The translations under genes were made by a program, and so were the position numbers. DNA of 38,707 nt from a virus (taxonomy: Duplodnaviria > Heunggongvirae > Uroviricota > Caudoviricetes): the IMG/VR virus record IMGVR_UViG_2529292997_000008, positions 1 through 38,707 of that record; one strand, written 5' to 3'. The notes under the pieces were generated by a model. The model was not told the origin of the DNA. It saw nothing but the letters and a program-made list of their open reading frames with translations, and did no database searches. This document shows, piece by piece, positions 1 to 38,707 of this stretch (its first letter is position 1; every line of letters starts with the position of its first letter).

Positions 1-129
<129 letters not shown>

Positions 130-330
130 TCAGGGACTTGTTCGCACCTTCCTTAAGTGTTTAATTGTCTCAGGCAAGCATCCTGCTTCGTCATATTCCG
201 CTGATAATCCTGTTTTCTGGCGTAACTGCTGCATTGTGTCGATGCCATCCAGTTCAAGGATGTTGATAATTTTTGTTTCAAGTTCAATGCTCATTGTTTT
301 TAGCCTCAATTTAAGCGCGAAAACAGCCAC
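130..330 (-). CDS. hypothetical small protein downstream of helicase gene
   Basis: 66-codon ORF in track, same orientation as replication operon; no recognisable motifs; alternative internal start at 294. Confidence 0.3.
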   Translation of the reverse strand: MAVFALKLRLKTMSIELETKIINILELDGIDTMQQLRQKTGLSAEYDEAGCLPETIKHLRKVRTSP

Positions 331-373
331 CAGAAAGCGGTAAACTTTCCGGTAAGCCGTTTGCTCAAGTTAA

Positions 374-1795
374 TTAAAAAGATGCTTTATTCTGGTTGTT
401 TCGTGGCGAGAATCGGCTTACCGCCGGACGTTGTTGCATTGACTGGATGCAAGCTGACGCCGCGCGGGCCTGGTCACACGGTAATATGTTGCCGTTGTCG
501 TCAAAACGCTGGTAAACAGTCCCGGTTTTTCCGTGACGGTTTTTTGAAACGATAATCTCCATGTATTCGCGTGCAACAGATTGTTCGTTGTAGTAGCCGT
601 CGCGGTATACCATGATGATCCGGTCTGCGTCCTGTTCAAGATTGCCGGAATCGCGCAGATCAGAATTGTTCGGTCGCTTGTTCGGTCGTTCCTCGACGCG
701 GCGGGATAATTGCGCCAGCGCCGCCACTGGTACGCGCAATTCTTTCGCCATCATTTTCAATGACCACGACAATTGCCCTACAGCGAGATCGTGACGTTCT
801 GCCTTAGCCAGCTTCATTAACCCGATGTAGTCAATCATTACCATACCCAGGTTGGGATAATCCTGCTTCATTCGTTCAGTTGTGGCGCGTATTTCCTCGA
901 CAGTTAACTGTGATGCATCAACAATCCACACATCGAGATCAGCAAGTGCGCTCATTCCCTGGGCAACGTGCGCCCATCCTTCGTCATCCAGTTTTACCGG
1001 ATTACGTAAGCAATCCGTTGACAAATTCCCTGCGCCAGCGATAGCGCGTTCAGTCATCTGATCGAGCGACATTTCAAGCGTGAACAGCAAAACGCCGACC
1101 CGCTGACCTTCGCCTCCAGGGTATGGGCGTTCAGCCGCCGCGCGGGCAATTGCCAACGCCAACGCCGATTTACCAGACCCTGGGCGTCCGGCGATAAGCA
1201 CCAGATCAGTAGCGTTAATGCCGCCTAACATTTCGTCGAGTGGGTCAATCCCTGTTTTGATGTTGTCAGAGTTCACGCCACACTCCATGCGTTTACTTAA
1301 CACTTCCGTGTATTCCTGGACCGCATCGCGCAACAGCACCGGGATAATTTGATCTTTTGTTACCTTTAATTTTGAATACCGGGAATCAAAATCTTTCATC
1401 GTCTCCCTGACGACTTCAAGCGTCCCTGTTTCCAGCTTGTAGCGAATGTCTTCCATTAGTTCCAGCATTTGCCGACGCTGGTGTTCTTCCTGTAGTAGTT
1501 GCGCATATCCTTTCAGGTTGGCAGCAGAAGGGCACGATCGTGCCGTTTGCATTAGCGGTACAAAGTTTTCATTGCCAATCTCATCGCCAACCAATAACGC
1601 GTCGATAAGATTTCTGTTTCTGGCTTGCGCCCGGATAACTTCAAACGCACGTTTATAAAGCGGGATCGTGAACACTTCAGGATCAAGTGTGGCGAGAACA
1701 TCTTGCGCGTTAGGAGTAAGGCCACCTAACAGTAGCCCGCCGATAACTGACGCTTCACGTTCCTGCCGTAGTGAGTTTATTTGCTCAGTTACCAT
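374..1795 (-). CDS. replicative DNA helicase, DnaB family
   Basis: 473 aa; Walker A GRPGSGKSALAL, DnaB-like N-terminal and RecA-like C-terminal layout; GGAGG RBS upstream of ATG at 1795. Confidence 0.9.
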   Translation of the reverse strand: MVTEQINSLRQEREASVIGGLLLGGLTPNAQDVLATLDPEVFTIPLYKRAFEVIRAQARNRNLIDALLVGDEIGNENFVPLMQTARSCPSAANLKGYAQLLQEEHQRRQMLELMEDIRYKLETGTLEVVRETMKDFDSRYSKLKVTKDQIIPVLLRDAVQEYTEVLSKRMECGVNSDNIKTGIDPLDEMLGGINATDLVLIAGRPGSGKSALALAIARAAAERPYPGGEGQRVGVLLFTLEMSLDQMTERAIAGAGNLSTDCLRNPVKLDDEGWAHVAQGMSALADLDVWIVDASQLTVEEIRATTERMKQDYPNLGMVMIDYIGLMKLAKAERHDLAVGQLSWSLKMMAKELRVPVAALAQLSRRVEERPNKRPNNSDLRDSGNLEQDADRIIMVYRDGYYNEQSVAREYMEIIVSKNRHGKTGTVYQRFDDNGNILPCDQARAASACIQSMQQRPAVSRFSPRNNQNKASF

Positions 1796-1813: not shown

Positions 1814-2932
1814 TTACAAAATGGAATATTCAGGGTAATAAACAAAGCGCCCAATTTCCCCATGATCCGGGCTGTAAATAATCACCGCTGCCAGACGCCG
1901 CGACCGCCAGCCGCCATTAGTTGAATATGCGTCTTTGCCAGCTAATGTGCCGTGGTGCTCAACTATTCCAAGTGATGTTTCAACAACTGATTGATGGTGC
2001 AGATGTCCAGTGTGAGCGTAAACAGCCACAGACCTTCCGAAATCCTCCCGCCAGTCAGCTACGCAAGCAGACAATAAATTTTCCGGCTTTTTGATAGTGT
2101 GCCCGTGGTGGTAAGCAAGGAATGTTTTGCCATACTGTGTGTGGTGGACAATGGCAGGTGACACGTCAACAGTCACGCGCGGCTCATCTTCGTAAAAAGC
2201 CGCAAGCGCAGCACGTAGCCAGATCATACCTGATTGGTCGTGATTACCGGATAATACCTGGATCTCGACATCCTTATGATTTAGTAACATCTTCCCGACC
2301 GCACGCCGGACCGACCGGATCGCCACATAAACCAGTTTTGCGTAGCGTGAATCACAATCTAAAACGTGATTACTTGATGGCGTCACTGGTAACAGGCCGT
2401 CAGTGTGAAGCACATCACCGCCGAGAAGTAAAACAGCTTTTTCAGACATCGGAGCAGCGCCAACAGCGTAGTCAAAGAAGTCATTCAACACGCGCTCAGC
2501 GATCCCAGTATCGTAGCTCTCACCGCATTCAGCTTTATGAGCAAGCGCCCCGATATGCAGATCAAACACCGGATAAAGTGCCAGGCTTTTTTGAAAATCA
2601 ATTTCAGGCACTGGCACAGCCTCCGCGCGTGGTATTTCATCAGTGAAAGCGTCGCGGGCCGCTTCCATTAGCTGTTCCATTTCTTCGCGGTCACGGGCTG
2701 TTTTAATCCAGCGCATGATAACATTGCCGTTCTTATCGACTAGCAACGACTCGCCATTGACGCCAAAACCAGGAGCGCGGCGTGTTGATAATAAACCACG
2801 TTTCGCCAGTTTTGCGCCCAGGCGCTCGACATTGCGTTTTGACATGCCATATTTTTCAGCAATCTGCTTGTACGTTAAACCGTTGTTATATTCAGCGATC
2901 AATTGCTCATCGCTGATTTTTCTTTGCGACAT
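1814..2932 (-). CDS. HTH domain protein fused to calcineurin-like metallophosphoesterase
   Basis: 372 aa; N-terminal HTH (LTYKQIAEKYGMSKRNVERL); metallophosphatase motifs DLH, GGD, GNHD, HHGH, GHLHH in canonical order; GAGGA RBS. Confidence 0.6.
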   Translation of the reverse strand: MSQRKISDEQLIAEYNNGLTYKQIAEKYGMSKRNVERLGAKLAKRGLLSTRRAPGFGVNGESLLVDKNGNVIMRWIKTARDREEMEQLMEAARDAFTDEIPRAEAVPVPEIDFQKSLALYPVFDLHIGALAHKAECGESYDTGIAERVLNDFFDYAVGAAPMSEKAVLLLGGDVLHTDGLLPVTPSSNHVLDCDSRYAKLVYVAIRSVRRAVGKMLLNHKDVEIQVLSGNHDQSGMIWLRAALAAFYEDEPRVTVDVSPAIVHHTQYGKTFLAYHHGHTIKKPENLLSACVADWREDFGRSVAVYAHTGHLHHQSVVETSLGIVEHHGTLAGKDAYSTNGGWRSRRLAAVIIYSPDHGEIGRFVYYPEYSIL

Positions 2933-2966: not shown

Positions 2967-4022
2967 TCAGGATATAGCACAACGAAAAAACTTGCACCCC
3001 AAATAATCCTCAATGCGTTTTTGTCTTATCGCATCGCTTTTTGCTTGCCGTTTGTGATGTGATTCATCAATTTCTACAGCAATATTATTCACAAGATCGT
3101 AGCCATCAATAAAATACTTGTTGCCAGCAACATTAACAGGATATTGCCTTATTAATTTAACTCCTTTTAGTTTTTCGTACATAGTTAATCCAGCATGTTC
3201 ATAACGCTTCCTAATCATATTTTTACAATTATAACTCATTTCTGATAATTTCTCGTCACATTCCCTTTTTATTTCCTCAATTACATTCTTGTCGCTTTTT
3301 AATTCAATAAAGTTTTCTATGTCGTTATAATTACCGCATTCAAAATTATTACTAAGACCTTTATTTTGACCCCATGTATGATACTTTTCCGCTATCTTAT
3401 CGCTAATATATCTTTCATATCCATAATTTGTTTTAACTGTAAAATATTCAATATTTAAATCAATGGTAAACTCATCATTATTAAGATGTTCATTTAAAAA
3501 CGTATCTGGATCTGCAATATCGCTTGAATGAAACAACCTTACCCATAGTTTTTCTATTGATACTCCGCGAGTAACGAACAACCATTTTTTATACTTTTCA
3601 GCATCTTCCTTTGACACATACACAGAGCATCGCCCGGGAGTATCACTAGTTTCAACATAGTTGTTACACCATAAAACATAATTATAAGCATAAGGACTAT
3701 CTTTTCTGGTATTATTTGAATATTTATTAAACACATCTTGTAAATCAACTAATCCACAAGATTCAATAACTGGCTTAACCCAATTTTCATTATATTCATA
3801 ATGTCTATATTTACCAGGTGTAACGAATCTAATAAACGTTATAGGTGTGATATACACATCATCACCATCAATAATAAAATCCTTGTATTCCTCAAATCCG
3901 TAAAGATCAGAGTATTTAACAAATGATTTAAGCCTATCGATTTCAAGTTCAGAAACAAGATTATTAACAGATAGTAATTGCGTGTCCTTACAATTTAGTT
4001 TCACATGATAAGTGGCAATCAT
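2967..4022 (-). CDS. low-GC accessory protein with C-terminal DUF559/Vsr-like (PD-(D/E)xK) endonuclease-type motif
   Basis: Track ORF 2967..4103 trimmed to ATG at 4022 preceded by AAGAGG; 351 aa; markedly AT-rich versus flanks; C-terminus FIDGYDLVNNIAVEIDESHH..DAIRQKRIEDYLGCKFFR fits pattern aIE.DG..HH...D..R...L...G..v.R. Confidence 0.6.
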   Translation of the reverse strand: MIATYHVKLNCKDTQLLSVNNLVSELEIDRLKSFVKYSDLYGFEEYKDFIIDGDDVYITPITFIRFVTPGKYRHYEYNENWVKPVIESCGLVDLQDVFNKYSNNTRKDSPYAYNYVLWCNNYVETSDTPGRCSVYVSKEDAEKYKKWLFVTRGVSIEKLWVRLFHSSDIADPDTFLNEHLNNDEFTIDLNIEYFTVKTNYGYERYISDKIAEKYHTWGQNKGLSNNFECGNYNDIENFIELKSDKNVIEEIKRECDEKLSEMSYNCKNMIRKRYEHAGLTMYEKLKGVKLIRQYPVNVAGNKYFIDGYDLVNNIAVEIDESHHKRQAKSDAIRQKRIEDYLGCKFFRCAIS

Positions 4023-4175
4023 ATGTACCTCTTTTCTTAATTTTATATATAACGCCTCAGACGTGCTACAACGCAAAAATCCCACCGCGTAACCCGTTTG
4101 CACAGGTTGCAGTGTCTTATTGCGTCAGAGGCGCTCTCAGGTGGCTAATTTTTGATTTACAGGCTGGTATGAAGG

Positions 4176-4277
4176 TTATGGATTGATAAGAAGGAACAAA
4201 CCGCCGAACAAAGCGACGTTAACAGCGATTGCAGCAGCGATGGCAAAGGCCAGGGCGAAAACGTGTTTACCGTCCAT
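4176..4277 (-). CDS. small hydrophobic peptide (33 aa, single predicted TM helix)
   Basis: MDGKHVFALAFAIAAAIAVNVALFGGLFLLINP; ATG with GAGAGGA RBS; not in track (<60 aa). Confidence 0.3.
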   Translation of the reverse strand: MDGKHVFALAFAIAAAIAVNVALFGGLFLLINP

Positions 4278-4410
4278 TTTAAAATCCTCTCTAAAACGCT
4301 CTATAACGAGCTAAATAGCTAAAGATATGCAATCGTAGCACCATGCGTGTTTTAGCTCGCTGGTGAGGTTGTTTTGTGGGTAATTTTGGATTTTTGCGAA
4401 TCGTGGTTGG

Positions 4411-5463
4411 TCAAAGAGCGCCTGCGCGTGTGTCGCGTAGCGTTTTTGGTTTAAGCAGGAAATCAAGTGTCGCTGTGAAGCCATTGCCGAAGTAAAAATC
4501 TGAAGCCGTGTTTTTGAATGTTTCGAAGTAGGCGACAAAGCCGTTAATGCTTTTGTCTTTCAGGTAGTCAGTGAACGCATAGATCTTGCGTTCAAGATCC
4601 CGATCCAGTTCGACAGGTGGTAACAGGCCGTCAAACGTGCTGTTAAATGCTTCCACCACGTCGGCAGCGTTTGCAGTGGCTGACAGTTTGCGCCATTGTT
4701 CAGCATCAGTCAGATACCCATCAAATTTAGTTACCCGGCAAATATTGATAGGCTTAGGTGTTCCACCACGGCTACGCCATTGCGTTAAAGCCCACTCAAT
4801 CACTAATGTGATCTCATCCTCCGTATACGCTTTACGTGTTTTTGTTTCTGTCAGTAGTTCGATGAATGGCTTCGCATCACGACATTTGCATCCTGCCTTG
4901 TCGTTGTAGAAGGCCAGGCAACGCAACGCCGCTTCGTTTACGCCATCATGATTGACCATTTTTTGTTCATTTTCGACAATACACGAAGTGTATATATCTT
5001 TTTCTCTTTCTTCTTCTACTTCTAATTCTAATTCATGACCCTTTCCTGACCCGGTCATGACCCTATCATGACCTTTTTGTGTTGGATTGATTAACTTTTC
5101 TAATTTTAATTGCTCCTTAGCTGTGTTTATGGCGGCCCTGTACGCGCTTTTAGAAGTCATTGATTGGTCAAGCCTTTTCAATAACTTTAAACAAGTTATG
5201 TGGCCTTGAGAACATTCAAACAAACCAATTTCGATGAAGTATTTCATCATTTCTTCTATACGTTTTTCAGTCGATCCGACGTTTCGCGCAATGATTCTCG
5301 CGTCATGTCGTAGGTCAAAAGTCAGATTGTGCTGATCTACGTCATAAGTTATTAGTTCGAGGCAATACCAATAAAGCCCGTACCCTTCCAGGCCATAATC
5401 TAACAAAACGTTTTGAAGTTTTTCATCGCGGTTCGCATCGCTGTCATGCTTAAACCACTTCAT
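4411..5463 (-). CDS. replication initiation protein, phage replisome-organizer N-terminal type
   Basis: 350 aa; N-terminus MKWFKHDSDANRDEKLQNVLLDYGLEGYGLYWYCLELI resembles replisome organizer N-domain; acidic linker; GGAGGG RBS; start overlaps upstream stop. Confidence 0.65.
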   Translation of the reverse strand: MKWFKHDSDANRDEKLQNVLLDYGLEGYGLYWYCLELITYDVDQHNLTFDLRHDARIIARNVGSTEKRIEEMMKYFIEIGLFECSQGHITCLKLLKRLDQSMTSKSAYRAAINTAKEQLKLEKLINPTQKGHDRVMTGSGKGHELELEVEEEREKDIYTSCIVENEQKMVNHDGVNEAALRCLAFYNDKAGCKCRDAKPFIELLTETKTRKAYTEDEITLVIEWALTQWRSRGGTPKPINICRVTKFDGYLTDAEQWRKLSATANAADVVEAFNSTFDGLLPPVELDRDLERKIYAFTDYLKDKSINGFVAYFETFKNTASDFYFGNGFTATLDFLLKPKTLRDTRAGAL

Positions 5464-5466
5464 AGA

Positions 5467-5724
5467 TCATCCCTCCGGCAACATCACTACATAGACATCA
5501 CTGAATGCATCAAGACGACAAACAAATCCTTTATCCATTAACGCGGCGAAGGCATCATGTACCGTATGAACAGGAAGTTCACACATTGCGGCTACTTCTT
5601 TGCGTGATGCATCATGTACCCGTCCTTTGTTATCTGCCTTTTCAGCCAGAGCCATTAAGACAAGTTTTTGAATCGGGCTATTAAGTTTTACGTTCCATGC
5701 TTTACTAATCATGTTTATACTCAT
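5467..5724 (-). CDS. small winged-helix DNA-binding protein at Cro/CII position
   Basis: 85 aa from ATG at 5724 with AGGAGA RBS (the 111-aa track version needs a TTG start); first gene of leftward operon divergent from cI. Confidence 0.5.
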   Translation of the reverse strand: MSINMISKAWNVKLNSPIQKLVLMALAEKADNKGRVHDASRKEVAAMCELPVHTVHDAFAALMDKGFVCRLDAFSDVYVVMLPEG

Positions 5725-5833
5725 CGCATTTTCTCCTATGGTTAGAGTGAACGCGCGGGCGGGCATCCCATTAGCATTAGATAGCAGTGACTGACCGCTC
5801 AACAGATCCCGCCGTTGCGTGATATTTGTTTTT

Positions 5834-5867
5834 CGCTTCGCAGCGACACCGGATTTTTAAAGAGCAT
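5834..5867 (-). promoter_or_regulatory. candidate nut-like site (boxA TGCTCTTTAAAAA plus boxB-like hairpin CGCU-GCGA-AGCG) in leftward leader
   Basis: Read on minus strand; boxA 11-12/13 to rrn/lambda boxA consensus, followed 8 nt later by 4-bp stem with GNRA-type loop. Confidence 0.35.
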
Positions 5868-6029
5868 AAGGTAAGTGCCTTTTTGTGCCTTCCGTTATCT
5901 TTTTCCTTGCGTCTTTGCAAGTATGGCCTTACCTTGTCTGCAAGTTTACAAAATGGAATTTTAAGATCAAGGCTTAAAATACACGTTTTGTGACTTGCAT
6001 CAAACTTTTTGAGGTTATAGGGTAGCGAC

Positions 6030-6677
6030 ATGAAAACAAAATGGTATGACTTAGCAAAGCAGCTCATGCGGGCGCAGGGCATGAGCCAGGATTCGCTCGC
6101 GGATCGTATGGGGATAACTAAAGGCGGCCTGTCACACTGGCTGAACGGTCGCCGAGAGCCAAATCTTGAAGATATTGCGCGGATTATGCGCGAGCTTGGT
6201 CGTCGGCAGTTTACTGTTACACATGATGGCATGGTCATTGATGATTCTGTTTCTAATACACTTCAGGCCGTGCCGCCGCGTGATTTAGGTAGTTACCCGG
6301 TTATTGACTGGAAGGACACAGTAAACAATATGGATGACGCAAGGCGTTCAGCATTACGACACGTTACGACTAGCGTTATTTGTTCAGATGACAGTTACTG
6401 GCTGGTTGCCAAAGGTGAATCAATGAACGCGCCGCAGGGGTTGAGCATCCCGGCGGGGACGATGATACTTGTGGACCCGCACGCGCCAGCTATTGACGGC
6501 AAACTGGTTATAGCCCAGCTTGAGGAAGGGCAGATACCGACGTTTAAACAGTTGATTATTGATGGAGGTCAAAGGCTTTTACGTTCGCTCAATCCGCTGT
6601 ATCCGCCAATCCCTATGAATCCAGAATCAAAAATTATAGGCGTGGTGGTTGATGCGAAGATCGTAAACCTGCCATAA
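6030..6677 (+). CDS. CI-type prophage repressor (HTH-XRE N-domain, LexA-like S24 peptidase C-domain)
   Basis: 215 aa; HTH QDSLADRMGITKGGLSHWLNGRR; C-domain with GESM serine motif and downstream Lys-containing segment; GAGG RBS. Confidence 0.85.
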   Translation: MKTKWYDLAKQLMRAQGMSQDSLADRMGITKGGLSHWLNGRREPNLEDIARIMRELGRRQFTVTHDGMVIDDSVSNTLQAVPPRDLGSYPVIDWKDTVNNMDDARRSALRHVTTSVICSDDSYWLVAKGESMNAPQGLSIPAGTMILVDPHAPAIDGKLVIAQLEEGQIPTFKQLIIDGGQRLLRSLNPLYPPIPMNPESKIIGVVVDAKIVNLP

Positions 6678-12150: not shown

Positions 12151-12690
12151 ATGAAAAATGATTACGGCGGCAGTCATACGCCGAAAGAAATAAAAGACCT
12201 ATGGCAGACGCCGAAACCTGTTTTTAGAGGAATGGATCGGGAATTCGAATTCGTCGCGGACGTGGCGGCAAACAAGGCAAATGCATTAGTTCCGCGATAT
12301 ATAACCGAAGAAATGAACACGCTTAATTACCCGTGGGGAGCGGTGGCGATGCCTGGTGAATATGTCTGGATGAATCCACCATATTCTAATCCGGGACCAT
12401 TCGTTGATAAGGCGGCGTTTGAACACCACCGAAATCATATTGGCTGTGTAATGTTATTGCCAGCCGACACTTCTGTTAGTTGGTTTATGAACGGCGTGGA
12501 GACGGCAAATGAATGCCGATTAATCACGCGCGGGCGGCTGGCGTTTATTAATGCCGCGACGGGTAAACCAGCAAGCGGAAACAATAAGGGGAGCTTGTTC
12601 TTGATCTGGCATCCACGGTGCAGACATGAATGTATTTTCACGCAGATAACACGTAAAGAGCTATATGCAAGAGGTGCAGATAATGACTAA
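12151..12690 (+). CDS. DNA N6-adenine methyltransferase, phage Dam family
   Basis: 179 aa; catalytic NPPY motif (WMNPPYSNPGPF); size and layout typical of small phage Dam-family enzymes. Confidence 0.75.
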   Translation: MKNDYGGSHTPKEIKDLWQTPKPVFRGMDREFEFVADVAANKANALVPRYITEEMNTLNYPWGAVAMPGEYVWMNPPYSNPGPFVDKAAFEHHRNHIGCVMLLPADTSVSWFMNGVETANECRLITRGRLAFINAATGKPASGNNKGSLFLIWHPRCRHECIFTQITRKELYARGADND

Positions 12691-13015
12691 GGCAGCAGAT
12701 TTATTGAGACTTGCAGCGGAAACCATAGAGCAAAGAGGTAAACAAAACGGCTACGACAAAAAAGAGGAAAAATCAGCGCCAAAAATAGCCACTATTTACA
12801 ACGCTAAGAAGGGAGCAGATTTAACCCCGCTTGATGTATGGGATCTGCTAATTTGTCTCAAGGAGGCGCGTTTAGAGGCCATTTTAAGCAATAAATCAGA
12901 TCCGACAGACACGCTAATTGATTTGATTAGCTATAACGCGCTAAAAGCGGAGCAAATATTAACGGAGCGGGAGGAAGCACAAAGAAAGAAACGGGCTGTT
13001 TTGATATACCGTTAA
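12683..13015 (+). CDS. hypothetical protein
   Basis: Track ORF 12665 trimmed to ATG after AGAGGTG RBS; overlaps methyltransferase stop. Confidence 0.5.
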   Translation: MTKAADLLRLAAETIEQRGKQNGYDKKEEKSAPKIATIYNAKKGADLTPLDVWDLLICLKEARLEAILSNKSDPTDTLIDLISYNALKAEQILTEREEAQRKKRAVLIYR

Positions 13016-13153
13016 ATTGCGGCTGTAAGAATGCCTCAATACCAGGCGACTTAATCGCCAGCAGCAAGGTAACGCTAAATAGTGTCCTTGCAAACAGGCT
13101 TGATGGTAAGTGTGATAACGAATCACTACTACGCGCGGCGGGGTATCATAAAA

Positions 13154-13657
13154 ATGGAAAGGGTGACAATTGACAGGTTATTGGCCTGCATTTATGTCGC
13201 CGTTTTCGTGATCATTAACCTTATTGTTAACCACTGCGGCCCGTGGGTAATTCCGATCACCACGGTAGCCGCCGTGTGCGTCAATATGATGATCCGTGAC
13301 TTCCTGTTATATGACGGCGGCCTGAAATGGTCGGCTACAACATGCGCCGCCGCTGGCGCAATCACGGTGCTGATAAACTACGATGCCGGGATGGTGGCGA
13401 TCGCGTCATTCGTCGCGGTTGTTTCCGGTGCGCTTATTTCTGGCGGTGTTTACCGGATTTTACCTGGCGATTTCGATTCAAAACGCTGGCCTGCGAATAT
13501 AGCGTCCGCCATTGGTGATGCGTTAATTTTTCCCACGCTATCGTTTATGGCATTTATGCCGGAAATATCAGCTATGCAATTCATCTCAAAAATGGCGGCT
13601 GTAACGGTGATCACTATCATCATTCGTCGCTATTTTACGTTCGAGGGTAGGAAATGA
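13154..13657 (+). CDS. polytopic membrane protein, possibly YhhQ/VUT-like transporter
   Basis: 167 aa, about 5 hydrophobic helices; loose resemblance to YhhQ from memory only, unverified. Confidence 0.45.
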   Translation: MERVTIDRLLACIYVAVFVIINLIVNHCGPWVIPITTVAAVCVNMMIRDFLLYDGGLKWSATTCAAAGAITVLINYDAGMVAIASFVAVVSGALISGGVYRILPGDFDSKRWPANIASAIGDALIFPTLSFMAFMPEISAMQFISKMAAVTVITIIIRRYFTFEGRK

Positions 13658-14418
13658 GTGGGCTTAGAAATTGGGTGGTGTGGTCGCTGTACGACGGCAG
13701 CGGGTACGCCGTTAAAGATTGGGCCGACGCTGGCTATAAGTGTTATTGTTTCAATTATGACGGCGCTAATCATGGCGATTATGAAGGCGTCAAGATCATT
13801 CATCCTAACATTGAATATGTCAACGTATGGATTGACAGCCATTTCCTGGTAATGTTCTCCCCTGAATTGTCTGTTTATCCAGATCCTGACATTATCCTGG
13901 GCTTTCCTCCGTGCGACGATCTTGCGGTGTCCGGCGCTCGTTGGTTTTCAAGCAAGCGTGAAAAAGATCCTTACTTCCAGCAGAAGGCGGCATACAACGC
14001 AAAACTGGTAGAAACGCTTGCTGACATGTACCACGTCCCGTGGATGGTGGAAAACCCGGTTGGAGCACTGTCAACGTTATGGCGTAAGCCGGATTTCATT
14101 TTTAATCCGTGCGCTTACGGTGGCTACCTGCCGGAAGATGATAAGCATCCAGCTTTCCCGGAATACATCGCCGACCGCGACGCCTACACGAAGAAAACTT
14201 GTATCTGGTGCGGCAACGGATTTAAACAGCCGCTATTTCGGCCTGTACCAATGCCTGATGAGTGGGAAGATAGTAAGCAGCACGCGAAGTTAGGCTGGAA
14301 GTCGAAGCGCACTAAGATGATCCGCTCACTCACGCCGCGAGGATTCGCCCGTGCTGTATTCCTGGCTAATGACCGGGCAATCACGCGGACTACTCTTAAC
14401 CGCGTTTTACCGGATTGA
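13654..14418 (+). CDS. compact C5-cytosine methyltransferase-like protein with PCD variant of motif IV
   Basis: 254 aa; motif I-like LYDGSGYA, motif IV GFPPCDD (PC then D instead of Q), motif VI MVENPVG; ATGA overlap with upstream gene. Confidence 0.55.
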   Translation: MSGLRNWVVWSLYDGSGYAVKDWADAGYKCYCFNYDGANHGDYEGVKIIHPNIEYVNVWIDSHFLVMFSPELSVYPDPDIILGFPPCDDLAVSGARWFSSKREKDPYFQQKAAYNAKLVETLADMYHVPWMVENPVGALSTLWRKPDFIFNPCAYGGYLPEDDKHPAFPEYIADRDAYTKKTCIWCGNGFKQPLFRPVPMPDEWEDSKQHAKLGWKSKRTKMIRSLTPRGFARAVFLANDRAITRTTLNRVLPD

Positions 14419-14440
14419 TGTTTACAAAATGGCGTCATTG

Positions 14441-14456
14441 TGTGATGCGGATCACA
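14441..14456. promoter_or_regulatory. CRP-type palindrome TGTGATGCGGATCACA
   Basis: Perfect TGTGA-N6-TCACA, lying between inverted TACAAAATGG motif copies in the 160-bp intergenic region. Confidence 0.4.
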
Positions 14457-14578
14457 TAATGGCGCTTTATTGTTTGTTCGCATGTATCCGTTTTGTATAC
14501 TTCAAACAAACAAAATGCTCTTTAAAAATCCGGTAACGCTGAAATGCGTAAAAATCACCTGAAAAAGGAGAGAGCATT

Positions 14579-35374: not shown

Positions 35375-36034
35375 TTAATTCCAGTTGCAAGCGTTTTTCA
35401 CTTTGTCGATGTGGTTATAAAGACCATCAATGTTAAACACTGCTTTCTCAATGTCGCCAGCTTCCGGCACTACTTCAATGATGAATTGTTTTTCGTTAAC
35501 CAGTTTTTTAATCATTGGGATGGCTTTTTTGCCGTCCCATAATCCAAGAGCTTTATAATTAGTTGACCGCCACCACTCAGTAGCTACAGCTTTGTGAACG
35601 CCGATCCGGTAGTTAATATAAGTAGTGTCCCCGGCGTCAGTTACATGGTGTGACCATGCTACGAACATTTTTGTTTTATTACCCTGGCAAGCGATTGTTA
35701 ATACCGGTTTATTCTTATCCTGTGCCTTCAGTGTCGGGAAAGCATCAAGACTTCCGCTGAATTGTTCTGCTTTCACAAAAAGGAATACGTTTTTTGCGTC
35801 CTGCATATCATCTTTTCTTTCAACTACAAGCCACTGTTTACCAGCATTTTCTTTTTCTAACTGTGCATCGTATGCGGCTTGTTTTGCTTGTTGTTCTGCA
35901 AGCCATTTAGCATTTTTCTCTGCTAATGCTTGTTGCTCTTGATTGGTCACTATAGGCGCTTTTTCATTATCCTCATTGCAACCAACCAGACCCAATACCG
36001 CCGCAATCATTGCCACTTTTGCTAACCGTTTCAT
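35375..36034 (-). CDS. moron lipoprotein (219 aa)
   Basis: Signal peptide plus lipobox LVGC; Gln/Ala/Lys-rich linker; GGTGGG RBS; own promoter at 36082-36121. Confidence 0.7.
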   Translation of the reverse strand: MKRLAKVAMIAAVLGLVGCNEDNEKAPIVTNQEQQALAEKNAKWLAEQQAKQAAYDAQLEKENAGKQWLVVERKDDMQDAKNVFLFVKAEQFSGSLDAFPTLKAQDKNKPVLTIACQGNKTKMFVAWSHHVTDAGDTTYINYRIGVHKAVATEWWRSTNYKALGLWDGKKAIPMIKKLVNEKQFIIEVVPEAGDIEKAVFNIDGLYNHIDKVKNACNWN

Positions 36035-38540: not shown

Positions 38541-38568
38541 CACAGAAAACCCCCAGCTAGGCTGGGGG
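38541..38568 (-). terminator. candidate convergent terminator for minus-strand transcription from beyond the window
   Basis: CCCCCAGC-TAG-GCTGGGGG hairpin with T-run on the minus strand only. Confidence 0.4.
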
Positions 38569-38707
38569 TTCCGGAAAGCTTTCAGCTTTAAGCCAGTTAT
38601 TAAAACCCCTTTTGATTTGTTAAAACACCTTGCGGTCTGGCAACTGCAAGTGTCAAACAAGAAATCAAAAGGGGGTCCCAATGGGGAACGAAAAGAGCTT
38701 AGCGCAC

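Follow-up and report, generated by a model that had tools for sequence, protein, structure and literature searches.

A divergent VUT/YhhQ-type membrane protein gene without a detectable DpdA partner in the methylase block of mEp021-like coliphages

What would a phage gain from encoding a polytopic membrane protein in one operon with two DNA methyltransferase genes? The question is raised by a block of four genes at positions 12151-14418 of the window, as we call the whole 38,707-nt stretch of viral DNA that was analysed. The first-pass annotation had read this block as a DNA-modification cluster, considered a membrane protein in such an operon unusual, and suggested that it could be a transporter for a modification precursor or cofactor.

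Gene content and phage context of the block

All four ORFs were verified on the + strand at the positions first given for them, closely spaced and closed by a strong terminator-like hairpin (Table 1), and their order is conserved among relatives; the cluster is thus real. Reading the junctions from the sequence, we found an 8-nt overlap between the Dam and DUF6378 genes and a 4-nt overlap (ATGA) between the stop codon of the membrane protein (VUT) gene and the start codon of the methylase gene behind it. The hairpin matches TERM_4, annotated downstream of the methylase gene in phage mEp021, and the mEpimmI paper locates nutR2 at the same site (PMC11893012). Identical gene order was found in mEp021, MagusPhagus and five further mEp phages, and in L003, a relative at 54% identity; among 5426 complete E. 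coli genomes, 30-35 (about 0.6%) carry it as well. The arrangement is therefore not due to chance, and the block is best explained as a delayed-early accessory segment of an mEp021-like temperate coliphage, at the position of lambda's nin region. The source of the window is an E. coli prophage, about 16 kb of which lies outside the 38,707 nt. Phage mEp021 is cultivable, with E. coli K-12 as its host.

Table 1 Features of the four-gene block, with positions in the window
Feature	Position	Strand	Remarks
Gene 1, phage Dam-family N6-adenine DNA methyltransferase, 179 aa	12151..12690	+	PF05869, TIGR01712, phrog_111, NPPY
Gene 2, DUF6378 protein, 110 aa, frameshift-shortened	12683..13015	+	PF19905, E = 1.2e-7
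Out-of-frame remnant of the variable DUF6378 C-terminal extension	13000..13170	+	+1 frame open
Gene 3, divergent short VUT/YhhQ (QPTR) membrane protein, 167 aa, putative 7-deazaguanine-base importer	13154..13657	+	
Gene 4, small C5-cytosine DNA methyltransferase-fold protein, 254 aa, phrog_757 family	13654..14418	+	
Terminator-like hairpin	14431..14466	+	16-bp stem and, behind it, a T-rich tail; just past the methylase stop

Both methylase assignments of the first pass, an N6-adenine enzyme of the NPPY type and a C5-cytosine-like one, were borne out. Gene 1 scored above the cutoffs of PF05869 (177.5 bits against a curated 28.1, E = 2.4e-52) and of the TIGR01712 equivalog (142.7 bits against 97.05), matched phrog_111 (E = 3e-66), and carries the catalytic (D/N)PPY motif, readable in its translation as VWMNPPYSNPG. 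Its dN/dS relative to homologues was 0.06-0.10. This family membership points to an orphan Dam-type methylase with predicted N6-adenine activity on DNA.

Gene 4 matched phrog_757, 'DNA methyltransferase' (E = 4.6e-87). PF00145 gave no match to it in Pfam even at E 10, and a few of its 2302 homologues, at 57-60% identity to it, carry this domain. In an alignment of 36 sequences, motif I reads FDGSG in most relatives and YDGSG in gene 4, motif IV has the consensus FPPC, and both its catalytic Cys87 and E133-N134-P135 of motif VI (ENPV) are invariant. The family also conserves IRSLTPRGFA, in which R229 (of 'TPRGFA') is invariant and lies in a C-terminal helix. The AF2 model of gene 4 (pLDDT 89.6) matched the catalytic domains of DNMT3A/3B in Foldseek (E = 6e-8, probability 1.0, TM-score 0.4-0.5), and a PDB profile search aligned motifs I-IV with DNMT3B (E = 0.13). 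Conserved motifs and a DNMT3-like fold suggest an orphan Dnmt-like methylase, predicted to act on C5 of cytosine in DNA. Some phage homologues of C5 methylases act as carboxymethyltransferases; CmoX, one of these, is marked by SPPC and by an Arg (R350) in place of the motif X Asn (PMC12783734), for which R229 of gene 4 would be a candidate counterpart. A carboxymethyltransferase (CmoX-type) reading of gene 4 was not adopted, because gene 4 has FPPC where CmoX has SPPC and a cmoA gene is lacking; neither cmoA nor a ligase gene (CmoY) was found among the scanned ORFs of the window or in the MagusPhagus annotation. Another non-methyl modification of cytosine would be conceivable, but nothing positive speaks for it.

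The second gene had been listed as an unknown 110-aa protein. The ORF is real and its role is still unassignable, but the family is now recognised as DUF6378 (PF19905), here in truncated form. Its relatives are 161-170 aa long, as alignments with the MagusPhagus, mEp021 and L003 homologues showed, and the 110-aa form is likewise annotated in E. coli M15. DNA alignment mapped the frameshift to about 12999-13005 (window GTTTTGATA, MagusPhagus GTTTTTGAT); the frame from 13000 contains no stop codon and ends in ...NGKGDN like the relatives. Searches of PDB profiles, of Pfam at relaxed thresholds and for homologues yielded no functional lead and returned solely close E. coli prophage relatives with a C-terminus of variable length. 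A PHROG label, 'phosphofructokinase', was not taken seriously.

A VUT/YhhQ protein without a detectable DpdA partner

Direct Pfam and NCBIfam scans of gene 3 gave no significant match. Vut_1 (PF02592) aligned at near full length (model positions 6-149 of 152) with a score below the gathering threshold (12.3-12.9 bits against 27.2, E = 0.15-0.22). The protein was identified in two steps: an exhaustive profile search returned 257 matches, and when these were scanned with Pfam, 56 of the best 60 were Vut_1-positive. In hhalign, gene 3 aligned over its full length with a set of 21 Vut_1-positive proteins (probability 99.8%, E = 1.7e-30), and it also matched phrog_4899 (E = 3e-46). The AF2 model (pLDDT 72) consists of six long helices; its best Foldseek matches in the PDB were weak (E = 0.5) and were six-helix ECF S components, and a PDB sequence search returned noise only. 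By homology, the guess of a transporter was right, and the profile search placed the membrane protein in the only well-known family that transports a precursor of nucleic-acid modification, not in an unrelated one.

QPTR proteins import preQ0/preQ1 or queuine, and their substrate specificity is variable and difficult to predict (PMC11130926). Gene 3 keeps the conserved QPTR positions RD, ASF, N, D-x-x-FP and K. In its clade, near-invariant positions of the family are altered (DS is replaced by DA, and the conserved K is no longer followed by GG); this clade is separate and small, accounting for three clusters at 50% identity in a set of 1.84 billion representative proteins. The altered positions together with the sub-threshold Vut_1 score leave room for a change of substrate or function. 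The putative transporter most likely still brings in a 7-deazaguanine base, for example preQ0 or preQ1.

A gene for a small DpdA-like DNA-guanine transglycosylase directly adjoins the VUT homologue of gene 3 in 74 of 80 IMG/VR loci; the other six comprise two with a TGT+DUF6884 fusion and four in which the VUT gene lies at the contig end. The same adjacency was found in five isolated phages, PEAT2, Opt-719, AB3P2, Phc and LHE71. The gene after VUT in Opt-719 was ruled out as a methylase relative, as it is DpdA-like (phrog_887). For this protein family, a position next to DNA-modification genes is therefore not unusual, which corrects the first-pass view. In a neighbour-joining tree, the DpdA-less VUT clade groups as sister of those Drexlerviridae VUTs that are linked to DpdA.

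7-Deazaguanine hypermodification of phage DNA is known to require DpdA, and the mEp021-like lineage has no detectable DpdA, TGT or Que gene. Searches with tblastn for DpdA/TGT were negative. A profile HMM of 67 DpdA-like sequences, run on six-frame translations, detected the CAjan DpdA that served as control (E = 4e-17) and missed the TGT+DUF6884 fusion type of locus L047; it found no match in the window, in parts of the mEp021/L003 genomes or in 52.4 of the 54.4 kb of MagusPhagus. Pfam scans of 10 large ORFs revealed no TGT, the annotation of MagusPhagus, the closest relative, lists no TGT, DpdA or Que genes, and no preQ1 riboswitch or other RNA element was found in the block. The nearest other DpdA-less VUT lineage, P0133, has entirely different neighbour genes. 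Phage yhhQ genes have so far been viewed as dispensable extras without a clear pattern. The yhhQ of phage CAjan is dispensable for dPreQ0 (PMC7544227), and phages with Q-pathway genes but without DpdA have been described, for which a boost of host Q-tRNA was proposed (PMC6884629).

Selection on the VUT gene and the possible roles of the block

The VUT gene had a dN/dS of 0.035-0.04 at dS 0.30-0.46, the lowest in the block and below those of the Dam and methylase-like genes. Its ORF is intact in all seven isolated phages that carry it (94.6-97.6% amino-acid identity), and although the clade has diverged to 45-54% identity, the conserved positions of the family are retained. These results indicate that the gene is functional and under strong purifying selection. 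They bear directly on the idea that VUT is a functionless leftover of a former DpdA-VUT module, for which one could cite the presence of DpdA in sister clades and its absence here, the sub-threshold direct Pfam score and the frameshift in the upstream DUF6378 gene of the window; the selection analysis largely refutes this idea, and we consider it scarcely credible. It speaks against a continued role in import that E. coli itself encodes a YhhQ and makes preQ0 de novo, which leaves a second importer without evident advantage. The share of NAU among the Asn, Asp, His and Tyr codons of the phage is 0.54, near the E. coli average, which is uninformative and gives no sign of a special Q-tRNA dependence. 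That a seemingly redundant importer should be under such strong selection hints at some role still to be understood.

That the host already possesses YhhQ also favours a re-purposed VUT scaffold, one that no longer transports a queuosine precursor and serves instead in superinfection exclusion, interference with a host membrane process, carriage of another vitamin or base, or export. The divergence of the clade with its altered DS and post-K GG residues, a genome in which no 7-deazaguanine genes were found, and the poorly predictable specificity of QPTR proteins (PMC11130926) fit this account. However, the core motifs are retained in a full-length profile match, the gene sits in an antiterminated early lytic operon and not in the position of a lysogeny-expressed moron, and nothing positive supports any of the alternative activities, so that we hold such a change of function to be on the unlikely side. 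A further possibility is a new integrated pathway, in which the C5-methylase-fold protein, the DUF6378 protein or an unrecognised phage enzyme would take the place of DpdA, install the base or cofactor imported by VUT and thereby create a non-methyl or 7-deazaguanine-type DNA modification. The ATGA overlap of VUT and methylase within a single terminator-bounded unit, the position of the methylase-like gene in the slot held by DpdA in PEAT2 and Drexlerviridae, the strong selection on VUT without DpdA, and the carboxymethyl-transferring C5-methylase homologues of phages (PMC12783734) all argue for it. The distribution of the genes argues otherwise: E. coli RM9245 has an HNH gene inserted between VUT and the methylase-like gene, STEC307/306 keep Dam-DUF6378-VUT with the methylase-like gene absent, almost none of the about 2300 methylase homologues has an adjacent VUT, and the DpdA-less P0133 lineage has no neighbour gene in common with the block. 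Gene 4 also lacks the SPPC of CmoX and a cmoA/ligase companion, and no TGT-fold protein was found. A joint VUT-methylase pathway is thus not supported, nor do the four genes appear to make up a single modification pathway, given the displaced or missing methylase genes and the pairing of VUT relatives outside this lineage with DpdA-like enzymes, not with methylases. We rate the integrated pathway as highly unlikely.

The best reading, which as a joint account we regard as somewhat probable, is that of two independent orphan methylases and an autonomous importer of a 7-deazaguanine base. Judging from family membership, the Dam-type N6-adenine and the small Dnmt-like C5-cytosine enzymes would methylate replicating phage DNA and blunt restriction. 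The six-helix VUT protein would derive from DpdA-associated phage transporters and most likely still imports a 7-deazaguanine base (preQ0, preQ1) across the inner membrane. With no detectable DpdA in the phage lineage, the known route into phage DNA would be closed to the imported base; it would rather add to the pool from which the host supplies tRNA queuosine or a Dpd system of its own. Alternatively, the substrate of VUT may have shifted. No role can be assigned to the DUF6378 gene in this scheme.

The two methylases are ordinary by themselves. Two findings bear on the view of phage yhhQ genes as dispensable extras: a distinct family of short VUT transporters is coupled almost always to a small DpdA in phages, and within it a sub-clade of mEp021-like gut coliphages has lost DpdA, yet very strong purifying selection persists. 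This sub-clade offers a concrete, testable case of how a phage might benefit from taking up a queuosine precursor although the known route of insertion into DNA is missing. The clade might even mark a new phage use of 7-deazaguanine-type bases, either in a non-TGT DNA modification by the neighbouring C5-methylase-fold protein or by some partner not recognised so far, or in deliberate control of the host preQ0/queuosine pool during lytic growth; we think this decidedly unlikely, but if true, pool control could, for example, turn Dpd or QueC-like systems of the host to the phage's advantage or help to escape them.

Relation to known systems

Gene 1 shows no notable difference from the PF05869/TIGR01712 family, sharing its cutoff-passing scores, its NPPY motif and its usual size. 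Gene 4 resembles the small orphan C5 methylases of phrog_757, which occur in Drexlerviridae and other enterobacterial phages and are distantly Dnmt3-like: it is 55-65% identical to the homologues of T1-like phages and has motifs I, IV and VI and the Dnmt3-like C-terminal helix in common with them. It differs in that it belongs to a temperate phage, has a VUT gene as its neighbour and itself gives no PF00145 match. With CmoX, the cytosine C5-carboxymethyltransferase of Synechococcus phage S-B43, it shares the C5-methylase fold and the catalytic PC cysteine, whereas FPPC is the consensus of its whole family and its phage provides no cmoA/CmoY ligase.

Gene 3 has in common with QPTR/YhhQ proteins (COG1738, PF02592; CAjan gp41, 'putative preQ0 transporter') the six helices, the conserved positions and the short phage form of ~160 aa; it differs from them in its sub-threshold Pfam score, its small clade of its own and its setting without DpdA/TGT/Que companions. 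Related to the block are also the DpdA-VUT modules, such as PEAT2 gp18-gp19, Opt-719 gp66-67 and those of AB3P2, Phc, LHE71 and the IMG/VR loci. Where these modules have a phrog_887 partner, the present block has Dam and DUF6378 genes upstream of VUT and a C5-methylase-fold gene downstream, but the VUT proteins of both are homologous (phrog_4899), and both arrangements belong to the early region of siphoviruses infecting Enterobacteria.

The four-gene block and its methylases

The four genes lie in a rightward early operon, 5' of NinG, RusA and a Q-like antiterminator. The 3-kb region around them shared 92% identity with Escherichia phage MagusPhagus and 85-87% with phages mEp013, mEp044, mEp010, mEp554, mEp515 and mEp021, relatives that belong to the 'mEpimmI' group of Nus-dependent non-lambdoid temperate coliphages (PMC11893012). 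The block matched a prophage on the chromosome of E. coli M15 at 99.9% identity; of 5426 complete E. coli genomes, 35 carried it, on the chromosome in every case. The Dam and DUF6378 reading frames share 8 nt, those of VUT and the methylase overlap at ATGA, and the hairpin that follows is the counterpart of an annotated mEp021 terminator, at whose matching position nutR2 has been reported (PMC11893012).

Coordinates of the four-gene block and of other features in the window and in retrieved loci (L numbers)
Sequence	Feature	Position	Strand	Basis or remark
Window	Phage Dam-family N6-adenine methyltransferase	12151-12690	+	PF05869 (E 2.4e-52); TIGR01712 above cutoff; NPPY motif
Window	DUF6378 protein, 110 aa	12683-13015	+	DUF6378 match
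Window	Membrane protein (VUT), 167 aa, six predicted helices	13154-13657	+	VUT/YhhQ by profile
Window	C5-cytosine methylase-fold protein, 254 aa	13654-14418	+	phrog_757 'DNA methyltransferase' (E 4.6e-87)
Window	Terminator-like hairpin, 16-bp stem	14431-14466	+	After methylase gene
Window	378-aa ORF	2967-4103	-	Weak DUF559 endonuclease-like C-terminus
Window	ORF in tail-gene region, opposite strand	35375-36034	-	VasI type VI secretion family PF11319 (E 1e-15)
Window	STnc490, Hfq-binding sRNA	38548-38671		Full-length Rfam match, 146 bits, E 5e-30
L005	DpdA-VUT module	5004-6226
L006	DpdA-VUT module	4989-6289
L011	DpdA-VUT module	3270-4477
L047	425-aa protein 5' of VUT	163-1437		Weak TGT (E 1e-5) and DUF6884 (E 3e-44)
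L048	Same type of protein	1-903		As for L047
L096 (E. coli RM9245)	HNH gene directly 3' of VUT	5018-5545
L097 (STEC307)	HNH gene directly 3' of VUT	5011-5538
L009 (LHE71)	phrog_757 methylase-like gene, split	2187-2899	-	Two neighbouring ORFs

All four ORFs of the first-pass annotation were present as described. Its N6-adenine methylase was borne out by both family profiles and a readable NPPY motif, and its 110-aa 'unknown' is a real plus-strand ORF that matches the DUF6378 family. The DUF6378 gene differs from those of MagusPhagus and mEp021 by a frameshift (window 12990-13170), with a single base of difference in a run of T near 13000; the outcome is the 110-aa protein and a 138-nt gap 5' of the VUT gene. 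E. coli M15 has the short form in its annotation too. Among E. coli prophages the extension at the C-terminus varies greatly (total protein length 103-170 aa), and it is missing in L003, a 54%-identity relative with the same gene order. A metagenomic ORF of 115 aa (P0010) has a PF05869 Dam N-terminus, and its last 82 residues share 90% identity with the C-terminal half of VUT; it looks like a deletion variant fusing Dam to VUT with DUF6378 removed.

The C5-cytosine-like assignment was confirmed at the level of the fold. The 254-aa protein had no Pfam match of its own, but it has 2302 homologues, some labelled DNA cytosine methyltransferase and a few of them matching PF00145. In an alignment of 36 homologues the conserved elements are motif I (FDGSG), motif IV (FPPC, its Cys invariant), motif VI (ENPV) and, near the C-terminus, the helix IRSLTPRGFA. 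The family profile aligns with DNMT3B in motifs I-IV and the AF2 model (pLDDT 89.6) matched the DNMT3A/3B catalytic domains (E 6e-8), which together with the motifs establishes the C5-methylase fold.

Elsewhere in the window, the STnc490 match lies just 3' of the tape-measure gene. The VasI-family ORF, probably a moron, sits where GC content is locally low (0.40). The 378-aa ORF, in very low GC (0.30 over 3001-4000), may have been acquired as a defence or accessory gene inside the replication operon.

Family of the membrane protein and its usual neighbour

A direct Pfam scan of the membrane protein aligned nearly the whole Vut_1 model at E 0.15-0.22 only, NCBIfam gave no match, PHROGs assigned phrog_4899 ('unknown'), and a word-indexed search of 5.8 billion proteins returned merely 12 close relatives. 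Exhaustive HMMER searching with a profile from seven clade members retrieved 257 proteins at E <= 1e-3, and 56 of the 60 best full-length hits matched Vut_1 independently (top 2.5e-15). The clade profile also matched a profile of 21 proteins, all Vut_1-positive and including CAjan gp41 ('putative preQ0 transporter'), with a probability of 99.8% (E 1.7e-30, 153 columns). These results place the protein, at the level of profiles, within the VUT/YhhQ (now QPTR) family as a short and divergent member. Family members that have been characterised take up preQ0/preQ1 in E. coli or queuine in Chlamydia (PMC11130926). By homology, the earlier suggestion of a precursor transporter is correct. Structure searches found no solved structure of the family, and the best fold matches, six-helix ECF S components, were weak. 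About one fifth of the best VUT hits (P0158, P0161, P0162, P0167, P0169 and others) were roughly 295-305 aa long, with no Pfam match in the extra C-terminal ~140 aa.

Among isolated phages, tblastn detected VUT homologues at 29-35% identity in five phages of three unrelated lineages: Drexlerviridae (Opt-719 with near-identical relatives, Phc and LHE71), Pectobacterium phage PEAT2 and Acinetobacter phage AB3P2. In all five phage regions fetched, VUT directly adjoins a gene for 243-275 aa; these neighbours are homologous to one another, and PHROGs scans of three of them gave phrog_887 'queuine tRNA-ribosyltransferase', i.e. like the DNA-guanine transglycosylase DpdA. Out of at least 542 positive IMG/VR contigs, 80 loci were retrieved by family profile; a DpdA-like gene adjoins VUT in 74, a TGT+DUF6884 fusion lies immediately 5' of it in two, and VUT is at the contig end in the remaining four. 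An HMM of the DpdA-like proteins detected the DpdA of CAjan (E 4e-17), an enzyme shown by experiment to be essential. From this adjacency and recognition we infer that short VUT proteins, as a rule, partner a DNA-guanine transglycosylase. For this family, finding a membrane protein in a DNA-modification locus is normal; the first-pass annotation had regarded it as unusual.

The compact two-gene module of DpdA-like (phrog_887, about 245-275 aa) and short VUT (phrog_4899, about 155-170 aa) genes is widespread, with examples among L005-L089 and in Drexlerviridae, Peatvirus and Obolenskvirus phages. No annotated preQ0 synthesis gene was found in the fetched flanks (about 4-6 kb each side), and no description of tight DpdA-VUT coupling in the literature surveyed. 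The TGT+DUF6884 protein may represent another kind of DNA transglycosylase fusion.

A conserved VUT gene in a lineage with no detectable DpdA

In the window and its relatives, VUT is flanked by Dam and DUF6378 genes (5') and the C5-methylase-fold gene (3'). Five DpdA-like proteins gave no tblastn match below E 0.1. A 67-sequence DpdA HMM reached E 1 at best against the window, 52.4 of 54.4 kb of MagusPhagus and the regions from mEp021 and L003, all translated in six frames. No TGT domain, the superfamily of DpdA, occurred in ten large window ORFs, and the annotation of MagusPhagus is free of Que, FolE and TGT genes. In a neighbour-joining tree, the DpdA-less clade (window, P0004, L003, P0133) was sister to the DpdA-linked Drexlerviridae VUTs, so loss or replacement of DpdA is the parsimonious history. 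Among the window, mEp021 and MagusPhagus, VUT dN/dS was 0.035-0.04 at dS 0.30-0.46, below that of Dam (0.06-0.10) and the methylase-like gene (0.04-0.09), and the VUT gene is not in decay. Key family positions are kept; DA replaces the near-invariant DS in the window and L003, P0133 still has DS, and all three lineages have lost the GG that follows the conserved Lys.

The proposal that methylases and membrane protein form one pathway was not supported. An HNH endonuclease gene is inserted between VUT and methylase in E. coli RM9245, and STEC307/306 keep Dam-DUF6378-VUT-HNH and lack the methylase-like gene altogether. The nearest other DpdA-less lineage, P0133, is likewise a temperate phage (45% identity). 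There VUT is followed by two unknown genes, 136-144 aa in length, an N6/N4 methylase is found in some copies and missing from others, and none of the window's neighbouring gene families occur. The methylase-like family is large and mostly without an adjoining VUT; in Phc and LHE71 its gene lies several kb from VUT on the opposite strand. Such arrangements are evidence against an obligate VUT-methylase link, and the VUT gene alone being constant across lineages suggests that it acts alone or with host factors.

In STEC307/306 the HNH insertion goes together with loss of the C5-methylase-like gene, and NinG and RusA are separated by a second HNH gene; these HNH genes look like mobile homing-type elements reshaping the block. 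The split phrog_757 gene of LHE71, where the DpdA-VUT pair is kept, may be a frameshift or pseudogene.

Possible roles of the transporter and the methylases

The most likely role of VUT is still the import of a 7-deazaguanine base. In a phage that lacks DpdA this base would be barred from phage DNA via the known route, and plausible sinks are the host Tgt/queuosine pathway, proposed earlier for phages with Q-pathway genes but without DpdA (PMC6884629), or a host Dpd system. A substrate shift is also possible. Against a simple importer story, E. coli has its own YhhQ and de novo preQ0 synthesis, the NAU codon share of the phage is unremarkable, and no preQ1 riboswitch was found in the block. 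Strong selection on an apparently redundant importer is the reason why two further accounts are kept: re-purposing of VUT to another function, which we consider rather unlikely, and a new pathway using it, which is more improbable still. With base import as the preferred reading, an orphan, strongly conserved QPTR-like transporter presents a tractable experimental question.

The two methylases are ordinary. Their family membership suggests independent orphan enzymes that would modify phage DNA against restriction; in the BASEL study such genes show no simple link to restriction resistance in Drexlerviridae. A CmoX-like carboxymethyl cytosine modification is not favoured: neither the ORFs scanned in the window nor the annotated genes of close relatives included a cmoA or ligase gene, and where CmoX has the motif SPPC, the window's methylase-like protein has FPPC.
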